Shown in pieces: positions 7,710-24,020 of a stretch of 28,317 bases of DNA. Position numbers and translations under genes: made by a program. Location: NCBI GenBank assembly GCA_044869275.1, contig JBIOXB010000174.1, positions 1 to 28,317 of the forward strand. Reading direction: 5' to 3'. The DNA is from a bacterium. Its GTDB lineage: Bacteria > Zhuqueibacterota > Zhuqueibacteria > Zhuqueibacterales > Zhuqueibacteraceae. The notes beneath the pieces were generated by a model. The model searched no databases. It saw only the letters and a program-made list of their open reading frames with translations, and was not told where the DNA came from. Within the stretch, counting starts at the first letter, position 1. The number at the start of each line of letters is the position of its first letter.

Positions 7710-7727
7710 GAAAGATCTCCCGAGTTT

Positions 7728-7766
7728 AGGAGTGGAGTAAGGGAGTGTTGGAGTATTGGAGTGTTA
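7728..7766. repeat. 8-mer tandem array, downstream arm flanking the four-helix-bundle gene
   Basis: Plus strand ...TGGAGTAA GGGAGTGT TGGAGTAT TGGAGTGT; inverted relative to 8267-8326. Confidence 0.75.
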
Positions 7767-7782
7767 TGAACATTCGCATGCT

Positions 7783-8238
7783 TTATCGAGAATAATCCGT
7801 AGAATCGCCTGCGCCAGAATCGTCTCCGATGCGACTGATCCAAGTACCGGTTTCTCTTTTGGCTTCCAGGCTTTCAACCAAGCGAATGAGTTTGTTTTCC
7901 ACTTCGTAATGCAATACGTCAATTTCTTGAAATCGTAATGCAGTGATTTGAGCGGTAGTTTTGAGTCCGATGACTCGTGTCAACGTTTCACCTAATGAAC
8001 CCAATGCGATATACAAAAACTGAATATACTCATGAATCGAGCGACGACAATAACCTTCAGCTATATTTGACGAAACTGACTGTGCCGCATCAGCCAACTG
8101 TGCTCGTAACTTGTAATCAATCCTCACCTCCGCATAGACAGTTTTCCAAATCAATTTGTATAATTCGATGGCCTTCTGCCAAACTTCGAGCTTCATGTAG
8201 CCCCGATTTTTGTTTCGATATTTGGTAGGCTCGAACAT
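7783..8238 (-). CDS. four helix bundle protein (TIGR02436 / S23-IVS / Avd-like)
   Basis: LEVWQKAIEL, QLADAAQSVSSNIAEGY, EYIQFLYIALGSLGETLT; RBS GGGAGGT upstream of the ATG. Confidence 0.9.
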   Translation of the reverse strand: MFEPTKYRNKNRGYMKLEVWQKAIELYKLIWKTVYAEVRIDYKLRAQLADAAQSVSSNIAEGYCRRSIHEYIQFLYIALGSLGETLTRVIGLKTTAQITALRFQEIDVLHYEVENKLIRLVESLEAKRETGTWISRIGDDSGAGDSTDYSR

Positions 8239-8266
8239 TGCGCACCTCCCATTTGAATGGTTTCAT

Positions 8267-8326
8267 CACTCCATTTCCTCACTCCAGTACTCCATCAATC
8301 CATTGCTCCATCGCTCCATCGCTCCA
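8267..8326. repeat. 8-mer tandem array, upstream arm flanking the four-helix-bundle gene
   Basis: Minus strand right after the TAG of the upstream gene: TGGAGCGA TGGAGCGA TGGAGCAA TGGATTGA TGGAGTAC TGGAGTGA ggaaa TGGAGTG. Confidence 0.8.
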
Positions 8327-9499
8327 CTATTGCGGTGGCCTATATCCCGCCTTCAGCCACCCGCGTTGCTGGCTGCTTTTTACGACCGCATGAATGAAAT
8401 GCACGCCGCGTGCGCCGTCTTGCACCGTGGGGAAATCCAGGTCGAAGGCGCTGGGCGTTTCGCCCGCAGTTCTCGCAGCGATGACGCGCCCAACATTGCG
8501 ATAAATATTGGCGAACGCTTCGATAAAAGCTTCGGGGTGGCCCGAAGGCAGCCGTGAATTGTGAACGGCCACGGGCGCAAGATAACCGTTGCCGCGCTTG
8601 TAGACTTGTTCCGGCTGGTCCGCGAAGCGAACGTGCAAATAGTTGGGATTTTCCTGGCGCCATTCCAATGAGGCTGCGGTGCCATAGACGTGAATATGAA
8701 AATTGTTCTCCTCGCCGACGGAGATTTGTGAAGCGTACATGATTCCGCGCGCGCCGCCTTCATAGTGCACCAGCGTGTTGGCGTCGTCGTCCAATTTGCG
8801 GCCGGGCACGAAGGTGGTCAAATCGGCGCAGATTTCTTCGATTTCCAGTCCCGTGATATAATGCGCGAGATTTTCCGCGTGCGAGCCGATGTCGCCGAAG
8901 CAGCCCGCCACGCCCGCTTGCGCCGGATCCGTTCGCCACACCGCCTGCTTCGCGCCCTGGCCTTCGAGCAGGGTCGTGAGCCAGCCTTGCGGATACTCCA
9001 CCACGATTTTGCGGATCGTGCCCAACGCGCGTTGCTGCACCAGCGCACGCGCCTGTTTGACCATGGGATAGCCGGTGTAGTTGTGGGTGAGCGCGAAGAT
9101 GATATTGTGCTTCTTGACGAGCCGGCATAATTCTTCGGCGTCGGCAAGTGTGGTCGTCATGGGCTTGTCACAAATCACGTGAAACCCGGCGGTGATAAAA
9201 GCTTTCGCGATCGCGAAGTGATGGTGATTCGGCGTGACGATGGAGACGAAATCGATCCGCTCTTCCTGAGGCAGCCGGCTTTCTTTCTCAACCATTTCCT
9301 GATAAGAAGCGTACACGCGCTTGGGATTCAGGAAGAGTGCCGTGCCTTGGGCACGCGATTTCTCCGGCGAGGCCGAGAATGCCCCGGCGACCAATTCCAT
9401 CTCACCATCGAGCGCCGCGGCTTTGCGATGCACCGCGCCGATGAACGCACCCGGCCCGCCACCGACCATGCCATAACGTAATTTGCGTTGAAGCGCCAT
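8327..9499 (-). CDS. Gfo/Idh/MocA family oxidoreductase
   Basis: LRYGMVGGGPGAFIGAVH, IVTPNHHH, ICDKP, DIGSHA, GHPEAF. Start at 9499 after AAGGAG; the track's extension is repeat-derived. Confidence 0.92.
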   Translation of the reverse strand: MALQRKLRYGMVGGGPGAFIGAVHRKAAALDGEMELVAGAFSASPEKSRAQGTALFLNPKRVYASYQEMVEKESRLPQEERIDFVSIVTPNHHHFAIAKAFITAGFHVICDKPMTTTLADAEELCRLVKKHNIIFALTHNYTGYPMVKQARALVQQRALGTIRKIVVEYPQGWLTTLLEGQGAKQAVWRTDPAQAGVAGCFGDIGSHAENLAHYITGLEIEEICADLTTFVPGRKLDDDANTLVHYEGGARGIMYASQISVGEENNFHIHVYGTAASLEWRQENPNYLHVRFADQPEQVYKRGNGYLAPVAVHNSRLPSGHPEAFIEAFANIYRNVGRVIAARTAGETPSAFDLDFPTVQDGARGVHFIHAVVKSSQQRGWLKAGYRPPQ

Positions 9500-9519
9500 A
9501 TGATTCTCCTTAATATCAT

Positions 9520-9673
9520 TGACAATTGACCGTTGGCAATTGACCGTTGGCAATTGACCGTTGGCAATTGCTAATTGCTAATTGGGAATTCTGAATTGTG
9601 AATTGTCAATTGTCAACGATGAATGGTCAATGGTCAATCGCCAACGGTGAATGGTCAACGATCAACAGTGAAC
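9520..9673. repeat. 7-mer tandem array forming an inverted-repeat hairpin
   Basis: 22 in-phase heptamers (TGACAAT TGACCGT TGGCAAT ... GGTCAAT GGTCAAC AGTGAAC), including CAATTGACCGTTGG three times; the two halves are reverse-complementary. Confidence 0.85.
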
Positions 9674-10609
9674 TCAAAAATCATCGCACAGTTTGTAAGC
9701 CTCGAGTACTGCGATCTCGCCTTCTTTGCCCGGCGTGGCGTTGCCATGTTCCATGCCCAACACGCCGCGATAGCCCTTGCTGTGAATATGCTTGAACACA
9801 TTGCGATAATTGATTTCGCCGGTGGTCGGCTCCTTGCGGCCGGGATTGTCGCCAATCTGGAAGTAGGCAATCTCGTCCCACGCGAGCTCCATGTTTGGAA
9901 TCAAATTGCCTTCGGTGATTTGCTGGTGATAAATGTCGAACAGAATTTTGCACGCCGGGCTGGCCACGGCTTTGCAAATCATAAAAGCCTGAGGAATTTT
10001 CGACAAAAACATATTGGGGTGATCGCGAAAGGGATTGAGCGGCTCCAGCACCATGATCAGTTGATGCGGCGCAAAAATGTCCGCGGCGCGCTTGAGGCTT
10101 TCGATGGCATTGGCGGTTTGATAGCCCATTTCGAGCTTGTGATAGAGATCGCCCATCACCACCGTCATCCACTTGGCGTTGACGCGCTTGGCCACCTCCA
10201 CCGCCTCGCGGCAGTCGCTGAGGAATTGTTCGCGCATGTCCTTGTCGCCGCTGGTGAAGCTGGGCTGGCCGAAACCGTTGCTGTTGGCCACAAACACGCC
10301 CATGGTCATGTTGCGGCGCGCCAGCTCCGCACCGATTTTTTCTTGCGTTTCTTTGGGGCGCTTGCGCATGTCATTGTCCTCGAGCGCCGCAAAGCCTTGG
10401 TCAGCCATGAATTTCAACTGGTCGATCAACTCTTCGCCCGCGTGATGCTTGAACATGCCGAAGTGCGGCGCATATTTGTTTTTGAAGGAATGTTTTCCCT
10501 GGGCTGAAGCCGGCGTGCCTGGCGCTGCGGAGCTCCCTGCCGGCGAAGCCGTGAGGGCGGTAACGCCCGCGGCCAATCCGGTTTTCATGAATTCCCTTCG
10601 TTTCACCAT
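9674..10609 (-). CDS. hydroxypyruvate isomerase-like TIM-barrel protein with Tat signal
   Basis: MVKRREFMK Tat motif; YAPHFGMF, VLEPLN, ILFDIYHQQI, FQIGDNPGRKEPTTGEINY, GMEH. Confidence 0.88.
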   Translation of the reverse strand: MVKRREFMKTGLAAGVTALTASPAGSSAAPGTPASAQGKHSFKNKYAPHFGMFKHHAGEELIDQLKFMADQGFAALEDNDMRKRPKETQEKIGAELARRNMTMGVFVANSNGFGQPSFTSGDKDMREQFLSDCREAVEVAKRVNAKWMTVVMGDLYHKLEMGYQTANAIESLKRAADIFAPHQLIMVLEPLNPFRDHPNMFLSKIPQAFMICKAVASPACKILFDIYHQQITEGNLIPNMELAWDEIAYFQIGDNPGRKEPTTGEINYRNVFKHIHSKGYRGVLGMEHGNATPGKEGEIAVLEAYKLCDDF

Positions 10610-10639
10610 GTTCTCCCTGCGCTATTCCATTACAAATGA

Positions 10640-10746
10640 AATTTGTGCTTTTTGAACAAAGAAATCCAAAGCCCAAAGCCCAAAACTCAAAACCACTCTT
10701 GGATTTTGTGTTTTGAATTTTGGGTTTCCCGCTTGTCCGGGCTAGG
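10640..10746. repeat. dispersed 7-mer hairpin element, copy 1 (MITE/REP-like)
   Basis: ATCCAAA GCCCAAA GCCCAAA ACTCAAA accactc TTGGATT TTGTGTT TTGAATT TTGGGTT then CCCGCTTGTCCGGG; a near-identical copy lies at 15599-15696. Confidence 0.8.
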
Positions 10747-10747
10747 C

Positions 10748-12040
10748 CTATGTGGTTCGACTTAGCTTGGTGACGCCCGGCACGGCCACCGGCGGCACCG
10801 GCATCGGTCCGAAACTAAAGCTCTTGGGCGTAATATCAAGCTCGGAATTCAAGATTTCATCCCACGTGATCGCCTGCCCGGTGTAGGCCGCTTCGCGGCC
10901 CATGATCGCCGAGAGTGTGCTCTCCGCCACTTGCCGGCCTTCGTTGAGCGGCTGGCCCTTGCGAATGCTGGCGATCAAATCCGTGTGTTCTTGCACGTAC
11001 GGATTCGGCGCTTCGACTTCCGAGCGCCAGGGCTTGGCGCCTTTGATCCAGGACGAAGCATTCGAAGTGCCTTTGGTGCCCACCAAATGCTCGCTCACTT
11101 GCGAGGCTGTGCCGTCGATTTGCCGGCACATGCTCAACACGCGCGCGCCGTTGGGATATTCGAACTCGATGGCGAAATGATCGAAAATGTGGCCATAGGC
11201 GGGATCGACGCGCACTTGCCTGCCACCCATGCCCAGGGCTTTGACCGGATGCGCCTGCAACGCCCAATTCGCAACGTCGAGGTTGTGAATGTGCTGTTCC
11301 ACGATGTGATCGCCGGAAAGCCAGGTGAAATAAAGCCAATTGCGCGCCTGCCATTCCATGTCGGTCCAGCCGGGCTGGCGCGGGTGCATCCACAATCCGC
11401 CCTGATTCCAATAAACCTGCGCCGTGACCAGGTCTCCGATCGCGCCGCCGTGAATGCGCTTCATCGTTTCAACGTAGCCGAGGTGATGCCGGCGCTGCGT
11501 GCCCGCGACGATGGCGAGATTTTTTTGCCTGGCCAGATCAGAGGATGCAAGAACCGAGCGCACACCGGCGGGATCGACGGCGACCGGTTTTTCCATGAAC
11601 ACATGCTTGCCCGCTTCAATGGCGGCTTTCAGATGCATGGGCCGAAACCCCGGCGGTGTTGCCAGCACGATCAGATCGACGTCGCTGGCGATCACATTAT
11701 TATAGGAGTCGAAGCCGACGAAGCAATGCTCGTCTGTGACTTTGAGGCGGTCGCCGATGGCGTTACGCAGTTGTTCTCGGCATTGGCTCAAACGATCTTG
11801 AAAGAGGTCACCCAATGCGACAATCTCGATGCCCGGCGAGGATTGGACGCAATCTTTCGCAGCGCCCGTGCCTCGTCCGCCGCAGCCGATCAACCCGACG
11901 CGAATGGTTTCGGAGGTGGCAGAGCCAAAAGCAAAATTGCCTGCAGCCATCAAACCGGCAGTGGCGGCGGTGGTGGTTTTGATGAAGTCTCTGCGCGTCA
12001 GCGGCAGGCCGGATTTTGAAGTGTCCATATTGTTTTCCAT
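10748..12040 (-). CDS. Gfo/Idh/MocA family oxidoreductase with Tat signal
   Basis: LTRRDFIK; IRVGLIGCGGRGTGA, ATPPGFRP, FMEKP, GDHIVEQHIHNLD. Start at 12040 after GGAGA. Confidence 0.92.
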   Translation of the reverse strand: MENNMDTSKSGLPLTRRDFIKTTTAATAGLMAAGNFAFGSATSETIRVGLIGCGGRGTGAAKDCVQSSPGIEIVALGDLFQDRLSQCREQLRNAIGDRLKVTDEHCFVGFDSYNNVIASDVDLIVLATPPGFRPMHLKAAIEAGKHVFMEKPVAVDPAGVRSVLASSDLARQKNLAIVAGTQRRHHLGYVETMKRIHGGAIGDLVTAQVYWNQGGLWMHPRQPGWTDMEWQARNWLYFTWLSGDHIVEQHIHNLDVANWALQAHPVKALGMGGRQVRVDPAYGHIFDHFAIEFEYPNGARVLSMCRQIDGTASQVSEHLVGTKGTSNASSWIKGAKPWRSEVEAPNPYVQEHTDLIASIRKGQPLNEGRQVAESTLSAIMGREAAYTGQAITWDEILNSELDITPKSFSFGPMPVPPVAVPGVTKLSRTT

Positions 12041-12080
12041 CTCACTCTCCAACTGGTAAACTGTTTTGAGCTTTGTCCGT

Positions 12081-12347
12081 CTAGTTTTTCGCAAACTCGA
12101 GCTCAACCACCGTATCATACGGATCGATCGCATGCTGTGGTATCCGCAGGAGCAAGCCGAGCTCGTTGGCAACAGTTTGCGCCGCGCTTCCGTCCTTGAT
12201 TTTGGAATCGAACATCGCAAAGCCGTCATGATGTTTGCTGGTGATGGTGATATATTTCATGCCGGCCGCTTTGGCAAGCGCAACCCACGCCGCCGGATCG
12301 AACCCCGTGGGATTGAATTGCGGCGGCAGTTTTTCAGAATGTCTCAT
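12081..12347 (-). pseudogene. GH29 alpha-L-fucosidase remnant with 5' truncation and large internal deletion
   Basis: [39 protein letters not shown] is a GH29 signature; it is joined directly to about 40 residues resembling a GH29 C-terminus (IP...DPYDTVVEL). Confidence 0.75.
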
Positions 12348-12356
12348 GGGGCAGTT

Positions 12357-12767
12357 TTAGATCTTGGTCTTATATTTGAAGGATTGTTGCACCAATTTCT
12401 TGAGCGTGGGCAGATGGATATCGTCCAACCGGTTGATATACAGACACCCCTTCCCTGTCTTGTGCTTGCCCAGTTTCTTCAAAAGTTCAGCGCACCGCTC
12501 AAAACCGGCCAGGAGGTAGAGTGTCAAGTTCTGCTTGCGTGGTGAGAAGCCGATGAGGCACATGTCGCCTTCGTGTCCGCTGGCGTAGGCGTAGTGATAA
12601 CTTCCAAAGCCAATGATACTGCTGCCCCACATCTTGGGTTCGGCCTTGGTGACCTGTTCCATGAGCTTGACGAGGGCAAAACAGTCCTGGCGCTTCTGCT
12701 GGTCGGGGATACTGTTCAGGAAGCGCGTAACGCTGCGATTGTTTAGTTTTGTTTTGAGCTCGGCCAA
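12357..12767 (-). CDS. DUF1801 (YdhG-like) domain protein
   Basis: MAELKTK...PKMWGSSIIGFGSYHY...GFSPRKQNLTLY...LGKHKTGKGCLYI; TTG start with AGGAGG RBS. Confidence 0.87.
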   Translation of the reverse strand: MAELKTKLNNRSVTRFLNSIPDQQKRQDCFALVKLMEQVTKAEPKMWGSSIIGFGSYHYAYASGHEGDMCLIGFSPRKQNLTLYLLAGFERCAELLKKLGKHKTGKGCLYINRLDDIHLPTLKKLVQQSFKYKTKI

Positions 12768-12803
12768 GTTGATCTCCTCCTAGTGGAATGGATCTACCGC
12801 AGC

Positions 12804-12930
12804 CTGTGACACGGGTTCATCTTTTTGCTTGCCGCCCAACGTAATAACGTAATATTGATGCTGGGATTGAGGTGGGGCGCCGCATGCCACCTCATCGCAT
12901 GCCGTGCGCAACATGAATGTTGCGTCACAG
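12804..12930. repeat. structured REP-like intergenic element
   Basis: Outer IR CTGTGAC/GTCACAG, with inner hairpins TGAGGTGG...CCACCTCA (about 12868-12894) and CGCAACAT-GA-ATGTTGCG (12907-12924). Confidence 0.5.
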
Positions 12931-12943
12931 TCGGTCTTGATCT

Positions 12944-13966
12944 TCACGGCTCGCACACCACGCGAAAACCCACGAAGGTCGCATCCGAAAGCCACCACCT
13001 GCTCTTCGGCATTTGCGGATCCGTCATGTTCCAGGATGGTGCTTGTTGCGCGCGCGTACCATAATCCAGCTGTCCGGCTTTGCTCATGAATGAGCCGCCG
13101 GCCACGAGCGGAGCACCATCGTTGCCGATCACCCATTCCGCGACGTTGCCTAACATGTCGTGCAATCCCCAAGCATTCGGCGCTTTCGCAGCAACGGGGT
13201 GGGTTTTATCCTCGGCGTTGTCCCAATACCACGCCTGCTGATCCAGTTTTTCTTTTGAAAGTTTTCCAGCAGCGCCGGCGCGGCACGCAAATTCCCATTC
13301 CAAGGCAGTGGGCAAACGAAACTTCTTGCCCGTCTTGGCCGAAAGCCAGCGACAATACTCCTGCGCCGCGTGAATGGTCATGCTCAATGCGGGGTAGCCC
13401 TTGTGCCCGAAACCGCGATCGGGCGCGCCATAGGGCTTGCTCGGCCGTGCGACGGCGTCCAGCGCGCCAATCTTGGGATCACCGGCGCCGTCGAGCTGAA
13501 AAGCATAGTGATCGTATTCGTCCCAGGTCACTTCGTTCTTGCCCATCCACACTGGTTTGATCGCGACCACGCCTTTGCCCTCCGGCAGGCTGGTGTCAGC
13601 AATCGGGATGGTACCGGCCGGCAGCGGTTTCATTTCGAACCTCACCGCAGTGCCGGGAATGTTTGCCGTGAAAGGCGATAGTGCTTGGGTGGAGTGCTGA
13701 GGTTGAAGAATCCGTTGTTCGGTCGCGCGAAAAGCATCGCAACTTTCAAGTTGCGATGTCAGGCCTGTTTCAAATCGCAAGCTTACGCCGTTGCTGCGGT
13801 GATCGTTTTTCTTGGGAGAGGCCAAAACAATAAGGCCACAACTCATGGCCATAACCGTCGCCAGCGCACGCCGCGAGAAAGATCTGTGGTGCGTAAAAAG
13901 GATCCGTAGCCGGAGCGCATCAAGAAACCTGAAGATTTTTGTCCTGCAGCATAGGACTCTGGCCAT
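12944..13966 (-). CDS. FGE-sulfatase (SUMF1/EgtB/PvdO) family protein; start uncertain
   Basis: WMGKNEVTWDEY, AQEYCRWL, FRLPTALEWEFACRAG, PNAWGLHDMLGNVAEW, GFRVV; the ATG overlaps the upstream TGA (TGATG). Confidence 0.85.
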   Translation of the reverse strand: MARVLCCRTKIFRFLDALRLRILFTHHRSFSRRALATVMAMSCGLIVLASPKKNDHRSNGVSLRFETGLTSQLESCDAFRATEQRILQPQHSTQALSPFTANIPGTAVRFEMKPLPAGTIPIADTSLPEGKGVVAIKPVWMGKNEVTWDEYDHYAFQLDGAGDPKIGALDAVARPSKPYGAPDRGFGHKGYPALSMTIHAAQEYCRWLSAKTGKKFRLPTALEWEFACRAGAAGKLSKEKLDQQAWYWDNAEDKTHPVAAKAPNAWGLHDMLGNVAEWVIGNDGAPLVAGGSFMSKAGQLDYGTRAQQAPSWNMTDPQMPKSRWWLSDATFVGFRVVCEP

Positions 13967-14808
13967 CAGAACTGTAACTGTTTCAAATGCTGATAGCTCG
14001 CCGTAATGCTCTGCAGTGGATCCGCGGGGTTGTCGTGCTCAACAAAGTAATGCTTCAAGCCGGCTTGTTTGCTGTGCGCGAAAATCGCGGCAAAATCGAT
14101 CTTACCGCTGCCGACCTCGACCATTTTTTGATCGTCGGCCATGTCTTTTACATGACAAAGTGGAAAGCGTCCAGGCTGTTTTTCAAAGTAAGCGAGCGCA
14201 TCTTGCCCGGCCTTTCGAACCCAGAAAAGATCGAGCTCCATGCCTACGAGTTTGGGGTCGGTTTCGGCGAGCAGAAGGTCGTAGGGTATTTTGCCGTCTT
14301 GCGCTTCAAATTCGAAGTCATGATTGTGATAGGCGAATTGGAAGCCGGCTTTCTGGCAGGCTTCTCCGACTTTGTTGAAAAAGGCCGCATGCTCTTTGTA
14401 TTTTTCCAGCGTGCGGTCGGGTGGCGCCAGCCAGGGGCAGACGAGGTATTGATGCCCGATGATTTTGGAGGTGGCCAGGGTGGCGTCGAGCTTGTCGCGC
14501 AAGAGGTCAATTGAAACATGCACGGACGGGGCCTTCAAGCCAAGACCATCCAGTAGTTTCTTGACGTCTTCCGGCGTGTGGTCAAAATAACCGGCAAACT
14601 CCACTTCTTTATAACCGATTTTCGCTACTTTCTCGAGCGTGCCGGCAAAATCTTGTTTCATCAAATCCCGCACCGAGTAAAGCTGCACGCCGATCTTTTC
14701 CAGCGATTTTTTGGCGGGCAGTGCTGCATGCGCCTGCAACTCTTCCAGATACAAACCGCCCAATGCCGCGCTTGCGGAAATTTTGAGAAAGTCCCTGCGA
14801 TTTATCAT
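13966..14808 (-). CDS. sugar phosphate isomerase/epimerase (TIM barrel) with Tat signal
   Basis: MINRRDFLK; IGVQLYSVR, YHNHDFEF, MELDLFW, HVKD, FVEHD. Confidence 0.9.
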   Translation of the reverse strand: MINRRDFLKISASAALGGLYLEELQAHAALPAKKSLEKIGVQLYSVRDLMKQDFAGTLEKVAKIGYKEVEFAGYFDHTPEDVKKLLDGLGLKAPSVHVSIDLLRDKLDATLATSKIIGHQYLVCPWLAPPDRTLEKYKEHAAFFNKVGEACQKAGFQFAYHNHDFEFEAQDGKIPYDLLLAETDPKLVGMELDLFWVRKAGQDALAYFEKQPGRFPLCHVKDMADDQKMVEVGSGKIDFAAIFAHSKQAGLKHYFVEHDNPADPLQSITASYQHLKQLQF

Positions 14809-14988
14809 TTGGAGCCATCCTCACATTTAGTGTTAGTTGCGCGAGAACCTCGGATCTTCAAAAAAGGCCAAGCATTTCAAAAGCAGCTTTCAATGCGCTT
14901 GATGAAAAACATGCATACCTCCGCTTTTCCGTAAGGCGTAAAATGTAAGGCGCAAGAAGCTTTCTGCAAGGCTTTATGTTTCTGATGA

Positions 14989-15350: not shown

Positions 15351-15410
15351 GGCGCTTCTCCTCTCATTGCGGAGTAATGAGTTGTTTCTTTGCAATCAAA
15401 CAAAGCACAA

Positions 15411-15484
15411 ACCGCAAGTGACGCAAATTTTCGCAGATGAACGATTTATGGAATCATCAGAGTGTTTCCGCCAAATCCGTTGGC
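15411..15484. repeat. degenerate 9/10-mer inverted array
   Basis: ACCGCAAGT GACGCAAAT TTTCGCAGAT ... ATCAGAG..TTCCGCCAA ATCCGTTGG; resembles 19201-19387. Confidence 0.4.
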
Positions 15485-15598
15485 TGGTTTTTCTATTTGG
15501 CCACCGCTGCAAGGGCCTTTTTTATCTCGGCAAAATGGGCCCATGTGAGCGGGCAATAGATAATATATCCCGCATAAAATTGCAAATGAATAGTTAAG

Positions 15599-15696
15599 AA
15601 TCTGTGCTCTGAGCAAAGAAATCCAAAGTTCAAAATTCAAAACCACTTTTGGATTTTGTGTTTCGAACTTTGGGGTTCCGGCTTGTCCGGGTCATG
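15599..15696. repeat. dispersed 7-mer hairpin element, copy 2
   Basis: CAAAGAAATCCAAAGTTCAAAATTCAAAACCACTTTTGGATTTTGTGTTTCGAACTTTGGGGTTCCGGCTTGTCCGGG; matches 10640-10746. Confidence 0.8.
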
Positions 15697-15918: not shown

Positions 15919-16358
15919 CGATGCGTTCCTTCTGGCCATCGTTCTCCCTTGCAGTCGCACGATCAGGAAATCGCTTCTTCGGCGCCGATCAGTTTTCCTT
16001 CCTTAATAGTTCAATTCGCCGACGACCGGGAACGGACAATACTCATGTTACACGATGGGGATGTCTGCCTCGAGTCGAACACCAGGACCCGCAATCCCGA
16101 ATAGGAATCTCGAAGAGTTCTGCAATCGAGATACACTTGTCAGCAAAGTTGACTGAGATCCTCCCACAACCGGACAAACCTTAAATGGCCGTTGAGAAAT
16201 CCGTTCCCTGCCGACATCGGGCGCGATCAAGCCGAGTATGCCAATCAAAGCAAGCGTGAAAATTTTTGCTGGGCGGTTGCAGCCACCAGCGGCTTTGTCC
16301 CGCCCTTGCGGGGTACGCATTTCCTTAGGCGCTGACTCATTCAGGCGAAGATGATACC

Positions 16359-17123
16359 ATGAACATTGAAGACATGAACGCGAAGTTCGCCAAGTTGTTC
16401 GATCACTCGATCGTCCGCCCGGACGCGACCACAGAAGATGTGCGCAAATTTGCAGAGACCGCGGTCAGGCTGAAAACTGCCACGTTAACCGTGCAGCCAC
16501 ATTACGTTCGGTTTGCTGCTGACTTGGTGCAGCACTCCGGAGTTCTGCTGGGAACGGTGGTGGGCTTCCCCCATGGCAACGAAACGCCTGCCGTGAAAGA
16601 ATTCCAAGCCAAAGCGGTTCTTGATCTCGGCGCCGAAGAGATAGACATGGTCATGAATATACCCGCGCTTAAGAACGGCGAAGAAAAACTGTTCATCGAC
16701 GACATTGCAGGAGTCGTCAAGGCTGCGGCAGGTGCGACGGTCAAAGTCATTACGGAAAACTGCTACTTGACACAGGAAGAAAAGCGCCGGGCTTGCCGTT
16801 GGATTGCCCAAGCCAGCGCTCATTTCGTCAAGACCTCGACGGCCTATGCCGAAGGAGGAGCGACGCTGGATGATGTTCGACTCATGTATCAGGCCGTCGA
16901 GGGGAAATGTTATGTGAAGGCCGCTGGAGGCATTCGGGAGATAGATGAACTTCTGGCGTACCTTCAAGCCGGAGCCCGGCGTTTTGGCTCGACCCGGTCT
17001 GACCAATTCATGCGGGCGTTTCAAGAGCTGCCCAGCGCGAAGAAAGCAGCATTCGAGGAGTTCTGCGGCGAAACTCGAAAAGCCGCTGGGCAAGCCGCTG
17101 TCACCCTCAATGGGCGAAGGTAG
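16359..17123 (+). CDS. deoC: deoxyribose-phosphate aldolase-like class I aldolase
   Basis: DHS, VVGFPHG, EIDMVMN, VKVITENCYL, FVKTST (Schiff-base Lys), VKAAGGIR. Confidence 0.88.
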   Translation: MNIEDMNAKFAKLFDHSIVRPDATTEDVRKFAETAVRLKTATLTVQPHYVRFAADLVQHSGVLLGTVVGFPHGNETPAVKEFQAKAVLDLGAEEIDMVMNIPALKNGEEKLFIDDIAGVVKAAAGATVKVITENCYLTQEEKRRACRWIAQASAHFVKTSTAYAEGGATLDDVRLMYQAVEGKCYVKAAGGIREIDELLAYLQAGARRFGSTRSDQFMRAFQELPSAKKAAFEEFCGETRKAAGQAAVTLNGRR

Positions 17124-17175
17124 TGAGGGCGAAACCTGCTCTTTAGTTTTGCCCAGGCAGGAGGCGCACAGTGCG

Positions 17176-17973
17176 ATGCAAACATTGGCTGAAAAAATTT
17201 TGGTCATCATCGGCGGCACCAGCGGCATCGGGCTTTCAGCCGCTGCTGCATTTATTGCCAGAGGCGCTCGCGTGGTTGCGGTTGGCCGCGCGGATGAGCA
17301 TCTCGAAAAGGCGCAAAGATTGTTGGGAGCTGCTGCATTTGTTTTTGCCGGCGAAGTGACGGATGCGGCAATCGCGCCACGCGCCATTGACGAGGCTTTG
17401 CAACGCTTCGGCGGCTTTCACGGGCTCTATCACGTCGCCGGCGGCAGCGCCCGCAAGCTGGGCGATGGCCCCTTGCATGAACTGGCCGACAGCGGCTTGG
17501 AAGCCGCGATGCGCCTCAATTTTTTTTCGGTGGTATATTCCAATCGCGCGGCGGTGAAGACATTCATGGCACAGGGCGCGGGCGGCAGTATTTTGAATTT
17601 GGGCTCAGTCCTCGGTTTTTCGCCTTCACCGCAATACTTTGCCACCCACGCTTATGCAGCAGCAAAGGCGGCTCTTGTCGGTTTCACCAAGTCCATCGCC
17701 GCTTATTACGCGCCTCATGGGATTCGCATCAACGCCATCGTGGCGGCATTAACCGCAACACCCATGTCGCAACGTGCCGCCAATAACGAAGATATATTGC
17801 ACTACCTCAAGACCAAACAACCACTGGAGGGCGGCCGAATCGGCATGCCGCATGATCTCGATGAAGCAGCGGTGTATTTTATGTCAGAGGGCTCGCGCTT
17901 TACCACCGGACAAGTGCTGGCGATCGACGGCGGTTGGATGATCAGCGAAGGGCAACACCACGTTTCGGAGTGA
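17176..17973 (+). CDS. SDR family NAD(P)-dependent oxidoreductase
   Basis: GGTSGIG, YAAAK catalytic motif, TGQVLAIDGG; start at the ATG at 17176 after AGGAGG. Confidence 0.9.
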   Translation: MQTLAEKILVIIGGTSGIGLSAAAAFIARGARVVAVGRADEHLEKAQRLLGAAAFVFAGEVTDAAIAPRAIDEALQRFGGFHGLYHVAGGSARKLGDGPLHELADSGLEAAMRLNFFSVVYSNRAAVKTFMAQGAGGSILNLGSVLGFSPSPQYFATHAYAAAKAALVGFTKSIAAYYAPHGIRINAIVAALTATPMSQRAANNEDILHYLKTKQPLEGGRIGMPHDLDEAAVYFMSEGSRFTTGQVLAIDGGWMISEGQHHVSE

Positions 17974-18116
17974 TGGAGTGGTGGATTAGTGGATTGATGG
18001 ATTGTTGGAGTAGTGGATTGTTGGAGTAGTGGAATAATGGATCGATGGGCTTTCCAGTCTTCCATTGATCCAGCAACCCAACAATCCAGTAATCCAACAA
18101 TCCACCGATCCAGTAT
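17966..18116. repeat. 8-mer tandem-array hairpin with no cargo gene
   Basis: 10 in-phase (T/C)GGA-NNNN units (17966-18045), a short loop, then 8 in-phase (T/C)CCA-NNNN units (18053-18116). Confidence 0.88.
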
Positions 18117-18144
18117 TGCCAGCATTCTTAGAGAGCGTTAGCGT

Positions 18145-19068
18145 ATGAATTTTGCCATCGGCATCGATCTCGGCGCGAGCAAGATCAAGCTCGTGAACGT
18201 TCGAGAAGATGGAGCGGTGTTGGCACGCCGCACCGTGCCAACGCATGATAATACAGAAATGCGTTGGGCCGACCATATCAAAATGTTGATCAATTCGGTC
18301 GAATCGAGCATGAGCGAAGCGGCGACATGGATCGGGTTGGCTGCTCCGGGCTTGGCTTCGCGAGATCATCGTTTTATTGCCTTTATGCCCTCGCGACTGC
18401 CGGGACTCGAAAGGCTCGATTGGACAAGTTTCTTGCAACGCTCGAATGCTGTAACCGTGTTGAACGATGCGCATGCCGCATTGTATGGCGAGCACTGGCT
18501 TGGCGCTGCCGCCGGCTTCGAAAATGTCATGATGCTTACTTTGGGCACGGGCGTGGGAGGAGCGATTCTTTCACGCGGCGAGCTCATGACCGGAACGATT
18601 GGACGTGCCGGACATCTCGGGCACCTTTGTCTGGATCCAAACGCGTCAAAAGATATCGTCAATACCCCAGGCAGCCTTGAATGGATGATAGGTGATTATA
18701 CGGTTCATGAAAGGAGCCGAGGTTTGTTTCATTCGACCAAAGATCTCGTCGCGGCGCATCTCGCCGGCAATCAGACTGCCACCGCGATTTGGTTGAAGTC
18801 GGTTCATGCGCTCAGTTGCGCGATTGCTTCGCTGGTCAATGTTCTCGATCCGGAAGCCGTGATTATAGGCGGGGGCATCAGTCGCGCCGGGGATGCGCTG
18901 TTCGAACCGTTGCGAAAATTCATGGCTGAAGTCGAATGGCGTCCGGGCGGTCATCGTGTCGAAATCATGGCCGCACAGCTTGGCGAATGGGCAGGCGCAT
19001 TGGGCGCGGCGCGCTTTGCGATGACGAACAAGGCGCGCAATACTGCGCTTAGATTGAATAGAATCTAA
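18145..19068 (+). CDS. ROK family sugar kinase
   Basis: GIDLGASKIK, LNDAHAA, TLGTGVGG, GHLGH, DPEAVIIGGGI, AGALGAA. Confidence 0.9.
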   Translation: MNFAIGIDLGASKIKLVNVREDGAVLARRTVPTHDNTEMRWADHIKMLINSVESSMSEAATWIGLAAPGLASRDHRFIAFMPSRLPGLERLDWTSFLQRSNAVTVLNDAHAALYGEHWLGAAAGFENVMMLTLGTGVGGAILSRGELMTGTIGRAGHLGHLCLDPNASKDIVNTPGSLEWMIGDYTVHERSRGLFHSTKDLVAAHLAGNQTATAIWLKSVHALSCAIASLVNVLDPEAVIIGGGISRAGDALFEPLRKFMAEVEWRPGGHRVEIMAAQLGEWAGALGAARFAMTNKARNTALRLNRI

Positions 19069-19200
19069 ATTCTTTCAACTCAGCAAGTGTTTTCGATTAG
19101 TTGGGCTGTTTCCGGTTCCCGACACTTCAGCCATTTTATGGAGGGTATTTATAGATTCTTTTAGAATGCAGCGGGACAGAGCCCGCAATCCCAAAAGCTC

Positions 19201-19265
19201 TGTACGCAGATCAAAACAGATTCACGCAGATTTTTATCAGCGTTAATCCGCGAAATCTGCGTATA
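19201..19265. repeat. 9/10-mer inverted array hairpin A
   Basis: TACGCAGAT CAAAACAGAT TCACGCAGAT / ATCAGCGTTA ATCCGCGAA ATCTGCGTA. Confidence 0.7.
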
Positions 19266-19315
19266 GAAGAAACTTTGTCAAAAAAGCAGAGATTTGCCAG
19301 TTTGTATTACAGATA

Positions 19316-19387
19316 ACCCGGATGACACGGATTCACACTGATTTCTGATCAAAAGCGAAAATCGGCCTAATCCGTGGCATCCGTGGT
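19316..19387. repeat. 9/10-mer inverted array hairpin B
   Basis: ACCCGGATG ACACGGATT CACACTGATT / AATCGGCCT AATCCGTGG CATCCGTGGT. Confidence 0.7.
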
Positions 19388-19491
19388 CAAAAAAGTATTG
19401 AAAACTACTTTTAAAAAACTGCTGAGGCTTCGGAAGGGGACAAAGTCCATCCTTTGGGAAAGCTTTTCATTTCGTATTGAGTCACAACACC

Positions 19492-20331
19492 ATGACGGCA
19501 TTGAGCTCTGCGCGACGGCCAGCTTTTGAATATTTGCAAAGATGCAGGGAATTGGTCGACCTGGTTGAGCACCAACTGGATAAAATAAACCAAGCCGCCG
19601 GCTGGTTCGCGGAAACGATCCTGGCCGATCGCATGGTGCATTTATTCGGCGCGGGCCACAGCCGGATTCTCGTCGAAGAAATGTGGCCGCGCTACGGCTC
19701 GTTTCCCGGTTTCAATCCGATTGTGGAGTTGTCGATGACGTTTCACAATCCCGTGGTGGGGCCGAACGGCCAGCGCCAGGCCATGTTTATAGAAAATGTC
19801 AGCGGCTTGGCGGAACGCATCTTGCGAAACTTCATGCTCTCGCCTAAAGATTCGGCGTTAGTGATCTCCTCCAGTGGCTGCAACGTTGTTCCCATCGAAA
19901 TGGCAAAAGGGTTTCAAGAGAGTGGCCTCAAAGTCGTGGGGCTGATTACGGCCAAACATGCTGCAGCGAGCGTGAGCAAACATCCCTCCGGCAAAAAACT
20001 CGCGGATTACGCGGATCTGGTTCTTGACACCGGCGCGCCGGTTGGCGATGCCATGGTGAGTATTGCAGATCTTGAAACCCCGGTTGCGCCCGGTTCGACC
20101 GTGGGAGGGTGTCTGGTGATCAACGCCATCAAAGCCAATGTGGCGGAGCGGCTCACGGCAGCCGGAAAACCGCCGAAGGTGCTTACCGCGGCTTCCCTCG
20201 TTGGCGGAGAAAAATCTTCATCTTTGTTTGAATCGGCTTACGACGAGCATTCCTCCCGCTTGAGCAGGTTGTATGGAAGTTTTGATGAATACGGCCTTGC
20301 GCAGCAGTCCCTGCGCAAGCCGGGTGGGTAG
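19492..20331 (+). CDS. SIS domain sugar isomerase-like protein
   Basis: VHLFGAGHS, LVISSSGCNVVPIEMA, ADLVLDTGAPVGDA, PGSTVGG; ATG at 19492 preferred to TTG at 19477. Confidence 0.87.
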   Translation: MTALSSARRPAFEYLQRCRELVDLVEHQLDKINQAAGWFAETILADRMVHLFGAGHSRILVEEMWPRYGSFPGFNPIVELSMTFHNPVVGPNGQRQAMFIENVSGLAERILRNFMLSPKDSALVISSSGCNVVPIEMAKGFQESGLKVVGLITAKHAAASVSKHPSGKKLADYADLVLDTGAPVGDAMVSIADLETPVAPGSTVGGCLVINAIKANVAERLTAAGKPPKVLTAASLVGGEKSSSLFESAYDEHSSRLSRLYGSFDEYGLAQQSLRKPGG

Positions 20332-20388
20332 AGTGCAATGCGCTTGCTGGCACTGTTTCAAATCTCATTCTCTTGAGGAATACTTCAC

Positions 20389-21417
20389 ATGCCCGTTCTT
20401 CCCGTGCGCACCACCGTCGTCGGCAGCTATCCTTTTCCGGGCTGGCTCGAGTTTTCCAGCCAGCATCTCGACCAGTTCGGTGCGGCAGACCTCGCAGAGA
20501 TGCAAGAACATGCGGTGCTCGCAGCGATTCATGATCAAATGGCCGCCGGCCTCGATGTGATCACCGACGGGGAGCAGACGCGCTTCGATTTCAATCTCTC
20601 GTTTTACGGGTATCTGGAAGGCATTAAACCGGAATCAGAATCTCCTCGCAAATGGGGACCGCCGGCGCACGATCAGCGCGGCAAGCATGAAATCATCGGC
20701 GAGCTGTGCGCGCCACGCGGCTTGGGCGCAGTTGCTGAATTCAAGCGATTGCAGCGCCTGGCGCCAACCGGACCAGCGCTCAAAGCCAGTGTGCCCGGAG
20801 CCTACACCCTGAGCGGGCGTTTGATCCCCAATGCGCGTTACAAAGATCGCTATGAAATTGCTGAAGTGCTCTTGCCCCTCGTCCGCAACGAATTGGAAGG
20901 CTTGGTGCAGGCAGGCTGCACGGAATTATCCGTTGATGAACCTTCCATGAGCTGTTACGCCTATCGTGAAGATACCAAGCGCTTTGTCGATATCTTCAAT
21001 CGCACCGTCGCACCCGTGGTGGGCAAGTGCCGGCTTTCGGCGCATCTTTGCTTCGGCAATTACAAAGGGCATGCGGTGGGCTATCGCCGTCTCGCTCCCA
21101 TGTTTCCGGACTTTCTCGATCTCAAAGTGAATGAGATGCATGTGGAAATGGCCAATCGTGAGTTTGCCGAGATCGAGATGATTGCGGGCATTGCTGAACA
21201 GATGGAGGTAGCCGTCGGCGTTGTCGATGTCAAGAGCTATTACATTGAATCGGTGGAGGATATTGCTGCACGCATCAAGCTTTGTTTGCAGTATGTGCCC
21301 GCCGAAAAGCTGTCCATCGCGCCGGATTGTGGCTTGAGCCAAACCGCGAGGTGGGCTGCGAAACAAAAGTTGATAAGCATGGTTGAGGGCGCGAGAAGGG
21401 TAAGAAAGCAATTGTAG
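20389..21417 (+). CDS. cobalamin-independent methionine synthase II (MetE C-terminal domain) family protein
   Basis: TTVVGSYP, GLDVITDGEQTR, SVDEP; Zn-ligand motifs HLCFGN, HVE and APDCGL. Confidence 0.88.
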   Translation: MPVLPVRTTVVGSYPFPGWLEFSSQHLDQFGAADLAEMQEHAVLAAIHDQMAAGLDVITDGEQTRFDFNLSFYGYLEGIKPESESPRKWGPPAHDQRGKHEIIGELCAPRGLGAVAEFKRLQRLAPTGPALKASVPGAYTLSGRLIPNARYKDRYEIAEVLLPLVRNELEGLVQAGCTELSVDEPSMSCYAYREDTKRFVDIFNRTVAPVVGKCRLSAHLCFGNYKGHAVGYRRLAPMFPDFLDLKVNEMHVEMANREFAEIEMIAGIAEQMEVAVGVVDVKSYYIESVEDIAARIKLCLQYVPAEKLSIAPDCGLSQTARWAAKQKLISMVEGARRVRKQL

Positions 21418-21482
21418 GCACTTGGAGTTTTGAATCCGTTGGCTGCTTTTATCCGTTGGAAGAATTTACAGAACCAGTCGCC

Positions 21483-22337
21483 ATGATAGTTCCTCGACTA
21501 AAGCACGATGCCTTATTGACCGATATCCGTGCTGCCGCGGTGAATCATGCCTCCTTCCATCTGTGGTGGCTCGGGCAGAGCGGATTTCTCCTGCAATGGC
21601 AGGGCAAGCATCTGCTCCTCGATCCCTATCTCTCTGATGCGTTGACGCGAAAATACGCAAAGACCGACTTGCCGCATATCCGAATGACGGAACTGGTGAT
21701 CGATCCGGCGCGACTTGATTTCATTGATATGGTCACCTCCAGCCACAATCACACCGACCATCTTGATGCTGAGACATTGGTTCCTTTGCTGAAAGCCAAT
21801 CCCGGGCTCAAGCTGCTCATTGCTGAAGCCAATCGCGAATTTGTTGCCGAGCGGCTTGGTATAAATGCTGCGGGTCCAATCGGCTTGAACGAGGGCGACA
21901 GCGTCGCGTGGGAGCGCTTCAAGTTCACCGGCGTGCCCGCGGCGCACGAAAACATTGAGCGTGACGCGCATGGACACTGCAGGTTCGTGGGATATGTGAT
22001 TCAGTTCGGCACGTGGACCCTCTATCACAGTGGCGACACGGTGCGGCACGATGAGATCGTGTCGCAGTTGAAAAACTTTTCCATCGATGTCGCCTTGCTG
22101 CCCATTAACGGCCGCAAGAGCGATCGCCGGGTGGCGGGAAATCTCGATGCCAAAGAAGCCGTGGAGTTCGCCCGGCAGATCGGCGCCAGACTGGCGATCC
22201 CCTGCCATTACGACATGTTCTCCTTCAACACGGCTGATCCGCAGGAATTCGCGCGCGAGGCGGAAGCACATGGCCAGCCCTATCGCCTATTGCAATGCGG
22301 CGAGCATTGGAGCAGCGTTGAGATAAAAAGCGATTGA
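21483..22337 (+). CDS. MBL-fold metallo-hydrolase (UlaG-like lactonase)
   Basis: WWLGQSGF, LLDPYLS, SHNHTDHLD, YHSGDT, LLPING, IPCHYDMF; ATG at 21483. Confidence 0.88.
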   Translation: MIVPRLKHDALLTDIRAAAVNHASFHLWWLGQSGFLLQWQGKHLLLDPYLSDALTRKYAKTDLPHIRMTELVIDPARLDFIDMVTSSHNHTDHLDAETLVPLLKANPGLKLLIAEANREFVAERLGINAAGPIGLNEGDSVAWERFKFTGVPAAHENIERDAHGHCRFVGYVIQFGTWTLYHSGDTVRHDEIVSQLKNFSIDVALLPINGRKSDRRVAGNLDAKEAVEFARQIGARLAIPCHYDMFSFNTADPQEFAREAEAHGQPYRLLQCGEHWSSVEIKSD

Positions 22338-22459
22338 CAGACACGGAAATAACATTATCTTGCGGAGACGAGCGCGCCGGTCAACGATGCATTTTTCGCG
22401 GTATGACAAGTTCTGTGTCATGAATCCCACCAATCATATAACAGGAAAGGAAAACGAGT

Positions 22460-23941
22460 ATGCCAGATCGTGAAACAACCTCCAAGCCACAGGGCGGCGC
22501 GATGACACGCCGCCAATTTCTGGGAACCACGGCGGCGGCGGCGGCATTTACCATCGTTCCGCGACGCGTGCTCGGTGGCCCCGGCTTCGTGCCGCCGAGT
22601 GACAAGGTCAATCTCGCCATGATCGGCGTCGGTGGACAGGGCACATACGACATGACCCAGTTCATGCAACTTCCGCAGGTGCAAGTCGTCGCAGTGGCTG
22701 ATCCCGTCAAAGAAATGGATTACAGCAAGTTCTATTTTGGTGGGATCAAGGGGCGCGATCCAGCGAAACAATTGGTGGATGAGACCTATGCCAAGCTAGC
22801 CGGTAATGGTTCCTACAACGGCTGCAATGCGTATGTCGATTTTTACGAGATGCTCGAAAAAGAAACCGGCATTGACGCCGTCTGCGTGTCGACCACGGAC
22901 AACTTGCACGCGTTTGGCGCAATGGCCGCGATGAAAAAGAAAAAGCACGTTTACTGCCAGAAGCCGTTGACGCATGACGTTTGGGAAGCGCGCCAGCTCA
23001 CGCTCGCCGCGCGCGAGCACAAAGTCATGACCCAAATGGGGAACCAAGGCCGTGCCGGTGAAGGCAACCGCCTGATGGTGGAATGGATCGAAGACGGCGC
23101 CATTGGCGACATCACCGAAGTGCATTCTTGGACGGACCGGCCCGCGGGTTACTGGCCGCAAGGTGTGACGCGGCCCGATTACGTTCCCGCGGTCACTCCC
23201 GATACCATTGATTGGGAGCGTTGGGTCGGCCCGGCGCCGATGCGTCCTTATCATCCGATCTATCTGCCGTTCAATTGGCGGGGCTGGTGGGATTACGGTA
23301 CCGGAGCGTTAGGAGACATGGGCTGCCACATTTTAGATACGCCGGTGTGGGCGCTCAAGCTCGGCCATCCCATTGCCGTGCAGGCGAGTTCCTCACCCTT
23401 CACTGAAGACAGCGGCCCCATTGCCACGATCGTGACGTTCGAGTTTCCGGCGCGCGACAAAATGCCGCCGCTGAAATTGATCTGGTACGAAGGCGGATTG
23501 ACGCCGCCGCGGCCGGTTGAGCTCGAAGCAGGGCGTCGCGTGGGCGATGGCAGCGGCACGCTGTTCCTGGGTACGAAAGGCGCGATCATGTGCAACACCT
23601 ATGCGGAACAACCGCGTCTCGTTCCGGAGACGAAAATGAAAGCCTACAAACAACCCCCCAAGCGCCTCAAACGCGTGCCCGAGGGCTTAGCCGGCATTTA
23701 TGCGGATTTCATCAACTCGATCAAAACCGGCGAACCGGCCTGCTCGAATTTCGACGTCTCCGGCCCGCTTTCCGAAATCGTGTTGATGGGCAACCTCGCC
23801 GTGCGCGCGAACGCCGCCTTCCAAGACAAGGGCCTGCGCGGCCAACGCTTGTTGTGGGACGGTGAAAAAATGGAAGTGACGAACATCCCCGAAGCGAACA
23901 AATTCGTCAAACGCGAATATCGCGAAGGATGGAGTCTGTAA
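22460..23941 (+). CDS. Gfo/Idh/MocA family oxidoreductase with Tat signal
   Basis: MTRRQFLG; AMIGVGGQG, VYCQKPL, WRGWWDYGTGALGDMGCH. Confidence 0.92.
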   Translation: MPDRETTSKPQGGAMTRRQFLGTTAAAAAFTIVPRRVLGGPGFVPPSDKVNLAMIGVGGQGTYDMTQFMQLPQVQVVAVADPVKEMDYSKFYFGGIKGRDPAKQLVDETYAKLAGNGSYNGCNAYVDFYEMLEKETGIDAVCVSTTDNLHAFGAMAAMKKKKHVYCQKPLTHDVWEARQLTLAAREHKVMTQMGNQGRAGEGNRLMVEWIEDGAIGDITEVHSWTDRPAGYWPQGVTRPDYVPAVTPDTIDWERWVGPAPMRPYHPIYLPFNWRGWWDYGTGALGDMGCHILDTPVWALKLGHPIAVQASSSPFTEDSGPIATIVTFEFPARDKMPPLKLIWYEGGLTPPRPVELEAGRRVGDGSGTLFLGTKGAIMCNTYAEQPRLVPETKMKAYKQPPKRLKRVPEGLAGIYADFINSIKTGEPACSNFDVSGPLSEIVLMGNLAVRANAAFQDKGLRGQRLLWDGEKMEVTNIPEANKFVKREYREGWSL

Positions 23942-23964
23942 GCCAGCCGGGCGGAAGAAGGTTG

Positions 23965-24020
23965 CGGATTGATGGATTCATGGATTGCTGCAGGCTCGGC
24001 GCTTCATGGTCCATCAATCT
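23965..24020. repeat. short remnant 8-mer hairpin
   Basis: CGGATTGA TGGATTCA TGGATTGC ... TCCATCAATC; perfect 10-bp IR with 23967-23976. Confidence 0.55.

Follow-up and report, generated by a model that had tools for sequence, protein, structure and literature searches.

The question raised by the stretch analysed here (contig JBIOXB010000174.1 of assembly GCA_044869275.1, 28,317 nt, hereafter the window) is why short tandem repeats followed by their own reverse complement, i.e. periodic hairpins, are found at several of its gene junctions, and why one pair of such arms encloses a small gene. The source genome (G000; 6.67 Mb, assembly 94% complete), a member of the Zhuqueibacteraceae, has been compared with relatives labelled G001 and onwards; individual loci outside it carry L numbers and contigs of G000 carry C numbers. 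The full unit consists of a repeat arm, a small gene and the reverse-complement arm, genes for four-helix-bundle proteins being combined with words of 7 or 8 nt and genes for GxxExxY proteins with words of 9 or 10 nt. It follows a host gene's stop codon directly, faces the host transcript and often takes up all the space between two coupled genes. Every protein clade retains a word of its own, the state of a junction differs among relatives and the number of units changes by whole words. We give a probability of roughly 60% to the reading that these are selfish, word-armed cassettes resembling rRNA intervening sequences (IVS), placed in sense orientation behind stop codons, which decay to empty hairpins and maybe refill cognate ones, some of the empties residing in transposable elements of the miniature inverted-repeat type (MITEs).

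The filled unit of the window and its host gene are organized as follows:

8327..9499, minus strand: Gfo/Idh/MocA oxidoreductase, host gene upstream of the cassette, used in the ortholog comparison
8264..8326, minus strand: 5′ arm of the filled cassette, TGGA-type 8-mers, beginning one base past the TAG of the Gfo/Idh/MocA gene
8245..8250, minus strand: Shine-Dalgarno-like GGGAGG of the cargo gene, assigned from sequence
7783..8238, minus strand: cargo gene, four-helix-bundle / 23S rRNA-IVS protein (S23p, Avd-like) of the NRGYM clade, 151 aa, assigned from profile matches
7727..7765, minus strand: 3′ arm, TCCA-type 8-mers, ending 17 nt short of the ATG of a xylose-isomerase-like gene

The cargo protein matches TIGR02436 (E 3.6e-21) and PF05635 (E 3.4e-22) and resembles XCC0516 of Xanthomonas (PDB 2GSC, E 5.5e-12). 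Its gene has a GC content of 43%, compared with 58-59% in the neighbours, and is preceded by its own GGGAGG. The arms of the 620-nt cassette are paired in both the minimum free energy and the centroid structure, the overall energy being unremarkable (z -1.0, 20 shuffles). The arginine of the family motif GxxRxxxSxxxNxxE, as given in PMC3936711, is replaced by aspartate (QLADAAQSVSSNIAE).

The association of arms and cargo extends well beyond this locus. Ten matches to the four-helix-bundle family and 16 to the GxxExxY family (10 above cut-off) have been found in the genome. When the flanks were judged by eye, 9 of the 10 four-helix-bundle genes had arms made of 7- or 8-mers, whose word differed from gene to gene apart from two TGGA copies, and the short GxxExxY genes had 9/10-mer arms, among them the CACGGAT word of an empty hairpin of the window (19317-19387). 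Of 30 loci of each kind in relatives, 22 with four-helix-bundle genes and 10 with GxxExxY genes passed a strict arm test (none of 150 shuffles in either case), and 11 further GxxExxY loci passed at a weak score. The proposal of the earlier note on this DNA, that filled and empty forms share one architecture, is borne out by loci in the genome and in its relatives, and particular cargo families are enriched between the arms.

The link between word and protein is strict. Among 80 related loci from many phyla, 57 encode a protein with the N-terminal NRGYM motif; of these, 49 have TGGA arms on both sides of the gene, seven on one side and one on neither. In a tree of 85 proteins (FastTree, 127 columns; four broken loci of the 80, L253, L255 and three partial G000 copies were left out) TGGA arms accompany 63 of the 65 members of one clade (Shimodaira-Hasegawa support 99) and none of the 20 proteins outside it, and the word label changes twice along the tree as opposed to 15-20 times with shuffled labels.

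Two layouts have been recognized: arm-gene-arm, as in the window, and hairpin-gene-hairpin (C53 of G000; L260, L277, L280, L282 and L283). The latter accounts for those families whose empties oppose the polarity of the gene-touching arms, and the empty hairpin at 9515-9673 of the window would match the solo copy expected from recombination between hairpins of the C53 type. On C203 of G000 (around 510-1030) a 5′-truncated four-helix-bundle cassette with 7-mer arms occupies a spacer position at the end of a CRISPR array, between the final full repeat and a degenerate one.

Periodic arrays are abundant in the genome. Compared with a triplet-shuffle control, 441 arrays of period 7 were detected (control 1), 174 of period 8 (control 4), 42 of period 9 (control 19) and 21 of period 10 (control 3). 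Inverted pairs of such arrays are present in 384 of 3082 spacers, seven being expected from the control; 262 have period 7, 90 period 8, 23 period 9 and nine period 10, with a strict detector that recovers just four of the nine elements listed in the window. The earlier note had pointed out that the TGGA arm comes first in the direction of transcription on either strand. This carries no information, because any inverted repeat, X followed by its reverse complement, reads alike on both strands. The informative regularity is the fixed polarity of each word: TGGA, GGAT or GGAG comes first in 69 elements and its reverse in none, CAAA comes first in 72 and never second, and TTAC comes first in 31 and second in eight.

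These counts bear on a neutral explanation, in which replication slippage and template switching make periodic inverted repeats de novo and no mobile unit is involved. Lengths do vary by whole units, arm copy numbers do differ between orthologs and many different words are present, all as this neutral process predicts; yet a small set of words dominates the genome, a given word goes with a single protein clade in different phyla, and each word has a fixed polarity (TGGA family 69:0, CAAA 72:0). The clade-word tree and the polarity counts largely refute it, and we regard it as very improbable.

The position of the elements relative to genes is likewise non-random. In 46 of 50 loci the left arm is where a sense open reading frame (ORF) of at least 600 nt terminates; the mirror control gave 8 of 50. 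The median distance from ORF end to left arm is 1 nt, although a number of the stop-free stretches may be spurious where genomes are GC-rich. In several relatives the first repeat unit encodes the final codons of the host protein and the right arm reaches the next ATG. Elements are present in 343 of the 2549 co-directional spacers of the genome. Of 304 elements without insertion sequence (IS) ends, 222 lie in that half of the spacer which is closer to the stop codon, and a loose test for abutting or in-phase position is passed by 25 of 64 8-mers as against 471 of 4238 gene ends.

The comparison of orthologous junctions has revealed presence/absence polymorphism, the same junction being filled, empty, provided with another word or bare. 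None of the 15 relatives that share the next gene has the cargo behind the gene ending at 8327. An empty TGGA hairpin is found there in G016 and G008, hairpins of other words (judged by eye) in G004, G007, G013, G017, G023, G025 and G028, 37 plain bases in G038 and an unrelated gene in G005; G001 and G003 have TGGA remnants behind the ortholog of the 8327 gene, followed by a different gene. (G001 and G014 are unpublished genomes, and the latter enters only the tally of IS-protein homologs described below.) The cargo protein is 81% identical to a copy at a different junction in another genus (G010), where the closest homolog of the host gene upstream reaches 59% identity, and 64% identical to the paralog in its own genome. 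These values favour a recent arrival of the cargo, putatively at a junction where a cognate empty hairpin had been present before.

The SDR-ROK gene pair, whose junction in the window carries an empty 8-mer hairpin, is shared by four relatives. An 8-mer element is present in G001 and, degraded, in G007; in G002 the genes are joined by a bare ATGA stop/start overlap, in G021 by a short spacer, and arm copy numbers vary between the orthologs. The junction that corresponds to 9515-9673 has 7-mer hairpins in G001, G002 and G003, a 10-mer hairpin in G016, and in G012 a pair of genes together with one arm. In the G001 ortholog of 9500-9673 (L005) two 7-mer hairpins stand in tandem, and a diverged duplicate of about 45 nt of the 3′ end of the upstream gene, stop codon included, precedes the second; a comparable duplication of a 3′ end plus arm is seen at the GxxExxY locus on C139 of G000. 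Such duplications may be the footprint of the insertion mechanism. In the census and at the junctions, none of the outcomes (random placement, no enrichment of cargo, no polymorphism at junctions) was observed that the earlier note had named as speaking against its own idea.

The remaining elements of the window are the following:

9515..9673, minus strand: empty 7-mer hairpin, TTGAC/TTCAC ... GTCAA/GTGAA, with words and polarity as in the C53 hairpins that flank a four-helix-bundle gene
10622..10746, minus strand: MITE-like element, left end CCTAG-CCCGGACAAGCGGG at 10746, CAAAA(T/C)-type 7-mer hairpin, right end ...CATTTGTAATGGAATAG
15596..15696, minus strand: second copy of the 10622-10746 MITE, one heptamer fewer, right end truncated, 82% mean column identity
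17176..17973, plus strand: SDR host gene, 3′ end running into an 8-mer arm
17967..18115, plus strand: empty 8-mer hairpin, first unit providing the last codon and TGA of the SDR gene
19168..19317, plus strand: MITE-like element of a second end type, left hairpin GCGGG-ACAGAG-CCCGC, right end AAACTTTG...GTTTGTATTACAGATAAC, CGCAGAT-word hairpin at about 19201-19265
19317..19387, plus strand: empty 9/10-mer CACGGAT hairpin, word as in the arms of GxxExxY genes on C235 and C139
23964..24020, plus strand: short decayed 8-mer hairpin of 3 + 2 units, 22 nt past the stop at 23941

Each empty element was folded as RNA and compared with 200 dinucleotide shuffles, a z value being obtained per strand. The most stable are 17968-18116 (z -8.7 sense, -10.5 other strand) and 9522-9671 (z -7.7 sense, -9.0 other strand), followed by 15599-15696 (-5.5), 19316-19387 (-5.2), 19185-19265 (-4.7), 23960-24030 (-4.3 on the plus strand, -2.3 on the minus strand) and 10640-10746 (-3.3). 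Of the nine elements originally listed, eight are real, with arrays and inverted pairing in place, and one, 15411-15484, has been excluded: the fold of 15405-15490 is not significant (z +0.6 and -0.7) and no other copy exists in the genome. A similar correction applies to the four stop codons said to touch an arm. Those at 8327 and 9674 abut one and that at 17973 lies inside the first 8-mer unit, but the stop at 10748 abuts an IS-type terminal motif, the heptamer arm starting about 25 nt further. An Rfam scan of the window gave no match at gathering scores.

That terminal motif introduces a second kind of element. The earlier note had described the whole system as non-transposase, which holds for most elements but not for 3 of the 9 in the window and 48 of the 384 in the genome, which lie inside IS-like ends. 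The elements at 10622-10746 and 15596-15696 belong together as one family and 19168-19317 represents a second end type; all three are short, non-coding and multi-copy and share ends with an ORF-bearing element, on which we base the term MITE. Terminal inverted repeats and a target-site duplication of variable sequence are lacking; the ends are asymmetric and only a fixed [AC]TAA(C) is repeated. In the genome the left-end motif has 89 relaxed matches (7-23 for shuffled motifs). Forty-two copies have both ends, with the [AC]TAA(C) core at both junctions; 24 of them are 121 bp long and there are others of 114, 128 or 142 bp, the lengths differing in 7-nt steps. The left hairpin covaries (CCGG/CCGG, GCGG/CCGC, GTGG/CCAC) and the family is present in both orientations relative to its neighbours. 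The 10622-10746 element was found in none of the four relatives compared. The junction core resembles RYYYAAC, the attC consensus; an integron reading of the ends gained no support, as no IntI scored above cut-off (a search of the genome for integrases gave none above that of TIGR02249) and the inner boxes do not pair in the attC fashion.

In metagenomes, 80 of 121 left-end matches were examined. In nine of the 80 the same left end stands before a homologous ORF (eight of about 505 aa, one interrupted) with a matching right end after it; a tenth regular-expression match was spurious and two additional such ORFs are visible beyond the nine. At L159 the homology of the ORF ends after about 220 residues in unrelated sequence, as if another element had interrupted it. 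Searches of Pfam, NCBIfam and PDB sequences gave no family for the encoded protein, and the ESM Atlas gave unnamed clusters only. A structural model built on an alignment of eight rows (predicted local distance difference test score 81) contains a TATA-binding protein (TBP)-like domain (1mp9_B, Z 8.9, rmsd (root-mean-square deviation) 4.0, 175 aligned positions, residues 1-385; a middling Z) plus a winged helix-turn-helix (wHTH). Residues D19, E243, D247, Y317 and E327 are invariant in eight sequences, and D19, E243/D247, Y317 and E327 are candidates for the counterparts of D46, D142, Y191 and E214 of RepDE as described in PMC13107129. The protein is probably a Rep_trans-fold transposase, the model giving a lead and not a membership. 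The asymmetric ends and covarying left hairpin of the unit may be compared with those of single-stranded DNA transposons of the IS91/IS200 type.

An intact close copy of the IS protein is encoded in G002. Full-length IS-like ORFs on C10 of G000 (134-1650) and at L232 of G002 have 10-mer words of the CAACGGAT type between the left end and the start codon, which suggests how MITEs acquire hairpins. A search of viral contigs gave no copy of the left-end motif. At about 5113 on C121 of G000 it is followed by a small ORF and no hairpin; the ORF, by eye, presumably resembles HicA.

These data have a bearing on a further alternative, that all hairpins are MITE-like or resemble repetitive extragenic palindromic sequences, moved in trans by the Rep-like IS or by a Y1/RAYT transposase, the genes being incidental passengers. 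IS ends on 48 of 384 elements agree with it, as does the left end, which precedes 7-, 9- and 10-mer hairpins alike and stands directly before a periodic hairpin in 24 of 66 scorable metagenome loci (2 when shuffled); the genome also has six Y1 transposase matches. However, by the motifs used, 336 of the 384 elements are without such an end, including 88 of the 90 8-mers (other end motifs were not searched exhaustively). IS-bounded copies have both orientations and are farther from stop codons (a distance of up to 10 nt in 1 of 39, as against 103 of 304 for the others). Inspection by eye showed no left-end motif beside the six Y1 genes, the one on C252 having a CGCGGAT-type hairpin upstream; and a strict match of clade and word is not expected of passengers. 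We consider a wholly transposon-borne origin improbable. Since IS-ended elements are few and lie farther from stop codons, the IS route is taken as secondary.

For the selfish cassettes we propose the following course of events. The cassette would spread horizontally as DNA, its protein possibly recognizing the cassette's own word. The gene could then disappear, in the TGGA type through a deletion that joins the arms and in the C53/9520 type perhaps through recombination of the hairpins on its two sides. This would leave empty hairpins by the hundred, their polarity fixed, and these may serve as homology handles for filled cassettes of the same word. In the transcript, pairing of the arms probably renders the insert tolerable, with RNase III-type excision conceivable by analogy with the Coxiella IVS. 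By the second route a minority of hairpins, three of nine in the window, would ride on non-autonomous copies of about 120-150 bp of the Rep_trans-like IS.

Several results weigh against this reading. A four-helix-bundle gene was found enclosed in only 5 of the 384 detected elements, a lower bound because the gene caller used misses genes of low GC content, and elements are also present where the neighbouring genes converge (26 of 241 spacers) or diverge (15 of 292). The match of clade and word shows co-inheritance, not binding, because kin share labels. Repeated loss of the cargo in relatives would also be compatible with the data on the 8327 junction. The analysis brought up no enzyme that would carry out the primary insertion, the four-helix-bundle protein is not known to have a catalytic activity, and RNase III was not found in the 94%-complete assembly of G000, probably an assembly gap because all 20 of 20 relatives have it. 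As to the IS, the Rep_trans structures 4cij, 4cwe and 4cwc gave only weak Foldseek rows (4cij E 9.8e-3), Rep_trans chains are not among the top 50 VIA rows for the model, and G000 has no close form of the IS protein, only a homolog of 24-28% identity. Folds show no bias to the transcribed strand, the sense strand being better in 154 and the antisense strand in 171 of 326 elements (p 0.26). Finally, 5′ arms as suppliers of stops in all frames were rejected as a general rule (138 vs 159 overall), with stop-richer 5′ arms in some families (8-mer 44:21, GCAT 11:0) and the reverse in others.

The same tests bear on an RNA role of the hairpins. Rho-independent terminators were rejected, a U-tract behind the stem being found on the sense strand in 14 and on the antisense strand in 20 of 304 elements, and with these counts and the fold counts the mRNA-processing role suggested in the earlier note has no support in the sequence. 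A broader form of this idea sees in the hairpins domesticated post-transcriptional elements (RNase III sites, stabilisers or terminators that tune operons) and in the small proteins their regulators. The strong co-directional and stop-proximal bias, the presence of RNase III in the relatives, the lean of the 8-mer family to sense-strand stability (46:33) and the retention of a hairpin at some junctions across genera despite a change of word speak for it, as do the Xanthomonas heptamers, which according to PMC4692102 are transcribed and 83% kept between two species. On the other hand, there is no overall bias in folds or U-tracts, word and hairpin presence turn over at one and the same junction (G002 manages without any spacer between SDR and ROK), and several cargo genes of relatives contain internal stops. 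We hold general domestication to be unlikely.

The cargo, which the earlier note had not identified, is of a family already known, whose rRNA-borne member is already built in this way. The closest described systems are the IVS of the Coxiella burnetii 23S rRNA gene and the inverted GGGAATC pairs of Xanthomonas, and neither paper describes the present system. The Coxiella IVS has terminal inverted repeats, tandem GACAGAT heptamers upstream of the S23p gene and is excised by RNase III (PMC4990558). The cassettes share with it a PF05635 protein enclosed by terminal inverted repeats, heptamers of variable copy number, low GC content, sporadic occurrence, ORF decay and, putatively, horizontal acquisition. 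The window cassette has the PF05635/TIGR02436 protein and complementary termini that form a long stem (whole-cassette z only -1.0); it is flanked by protein genes, with no Rfam match in the window, and is not a member of the 23S IVS class because it is not located in an rRNA helix. Unlike the Coxiella IVS, the cassettes stand between protein genes at stop codons, with many word/clade pairs per genome and hundreds of empties.

The GGGAATC heptamers of Xanthomonas and GGGGA(C/T)T heptamers of Nostoc are intergenic and have been interpreted as G-quadruplex regulators (Rehm et al. 2015, PMC4692102), with 70-75 inverted pairs per Xanthomonas genome between co-directional ORFs. The empty form agrees with these pairs in position and polarity (G-rich arm near the stop, sense strand), whereas no cargo form is described there, the main text being silent on S23, four-helix, IVS and RNase III. 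TAACTGA repeats of Beggiatoaceae, described as direct repeats near start codons (MacGregor 2015, PMC4679880), are similar as intergenic heptamer arrays, patchy across phyla and overlapping gene ends, and differ in that their main text has no inverted-arm cassette and no four-helix-bundle link. The accessory protein Avd of diversity-generating retroelements (DGR) is homologous to PF05635 (PMC10053308), so that the cargo shares this four-helix-bundle family. No reverse transcriptase was found among the 25 window ORFs scanned (template and variable repeats were not searched for); three such genes lie on other contigs (C154, C184, C137). 23S_rRNA_IVP genes have been reported within cas loci (PMC3936711). 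The IS protein resembles Rep_trans (PF02486) initiators and Rep-Arvir (PMC13107129) in its TBP-like fold, wHTH and candidate residues, and unlike them has no Pfam or NCBIfam match and belongs to a unit of IS type that has given rise to MITEs, whereas they are proteins of plasmids or viruses. A description of the cassette system or of a Rep_trans-type IS was not found in the literature, supplements and most subscription papers having been outside the search, so that absence from print is not shown by it. Comparable intergenic heptamer arrays are the STRR heptamers of cyanobacteria. The window system is an IVS-type design in another setting, ordinary operon stop codons, with filled and emptied copies.

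Three other features of the window may be recorded. Just past the 23964 hairpin a PF01555 DNA methylase gene overlaps a gene for a NotI-family restriction endonuclease (PF12183) in a region that is AT-rich by eye (24068-27014); an 88-aa alpha-L-fucosidase (PF01120) fragment, apparently a gene remnant, lies beside a DUF1801 gene (12081-12347); and non-periodic palindromes of another repeat type are present at 4092-4143 (CTGAGCTTGTCGAAG / CTTCGACAAGCTCAG) and 3787-3935 (a 17-nt pair).

A more far-reaching version of the cassette reading, which we put forward tentatively and think doubtful as a whole, is that the four-helix-bundle (Avd-like) and GxxExxY proteins form a word-specific reader code, in which every clade would bind a repeat of 7-10 nt of its own and home its cassette to stop-codon junctions, that the empties are landing pads and binding sites on host mRNA, and that a separate transposon class with a Rep_trans-fold nickase ferries them through the genome. 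If true, one design would explain the function of the huge four-helix-bundle and GxxExxY families, rRNA intervening sequences would be cassettes that chanced to land in 23S rRNA, and the commonness of heptamer repeats between bacterial genes would find an explanation. As a by-product the IS would provide a testable candidate transposon class with a Rep_trans-fold enzyme, defined ends and natural mini-elements. The strict pairing of clade and word would allow binding by these functionally unassigned proteins to be tested directly.

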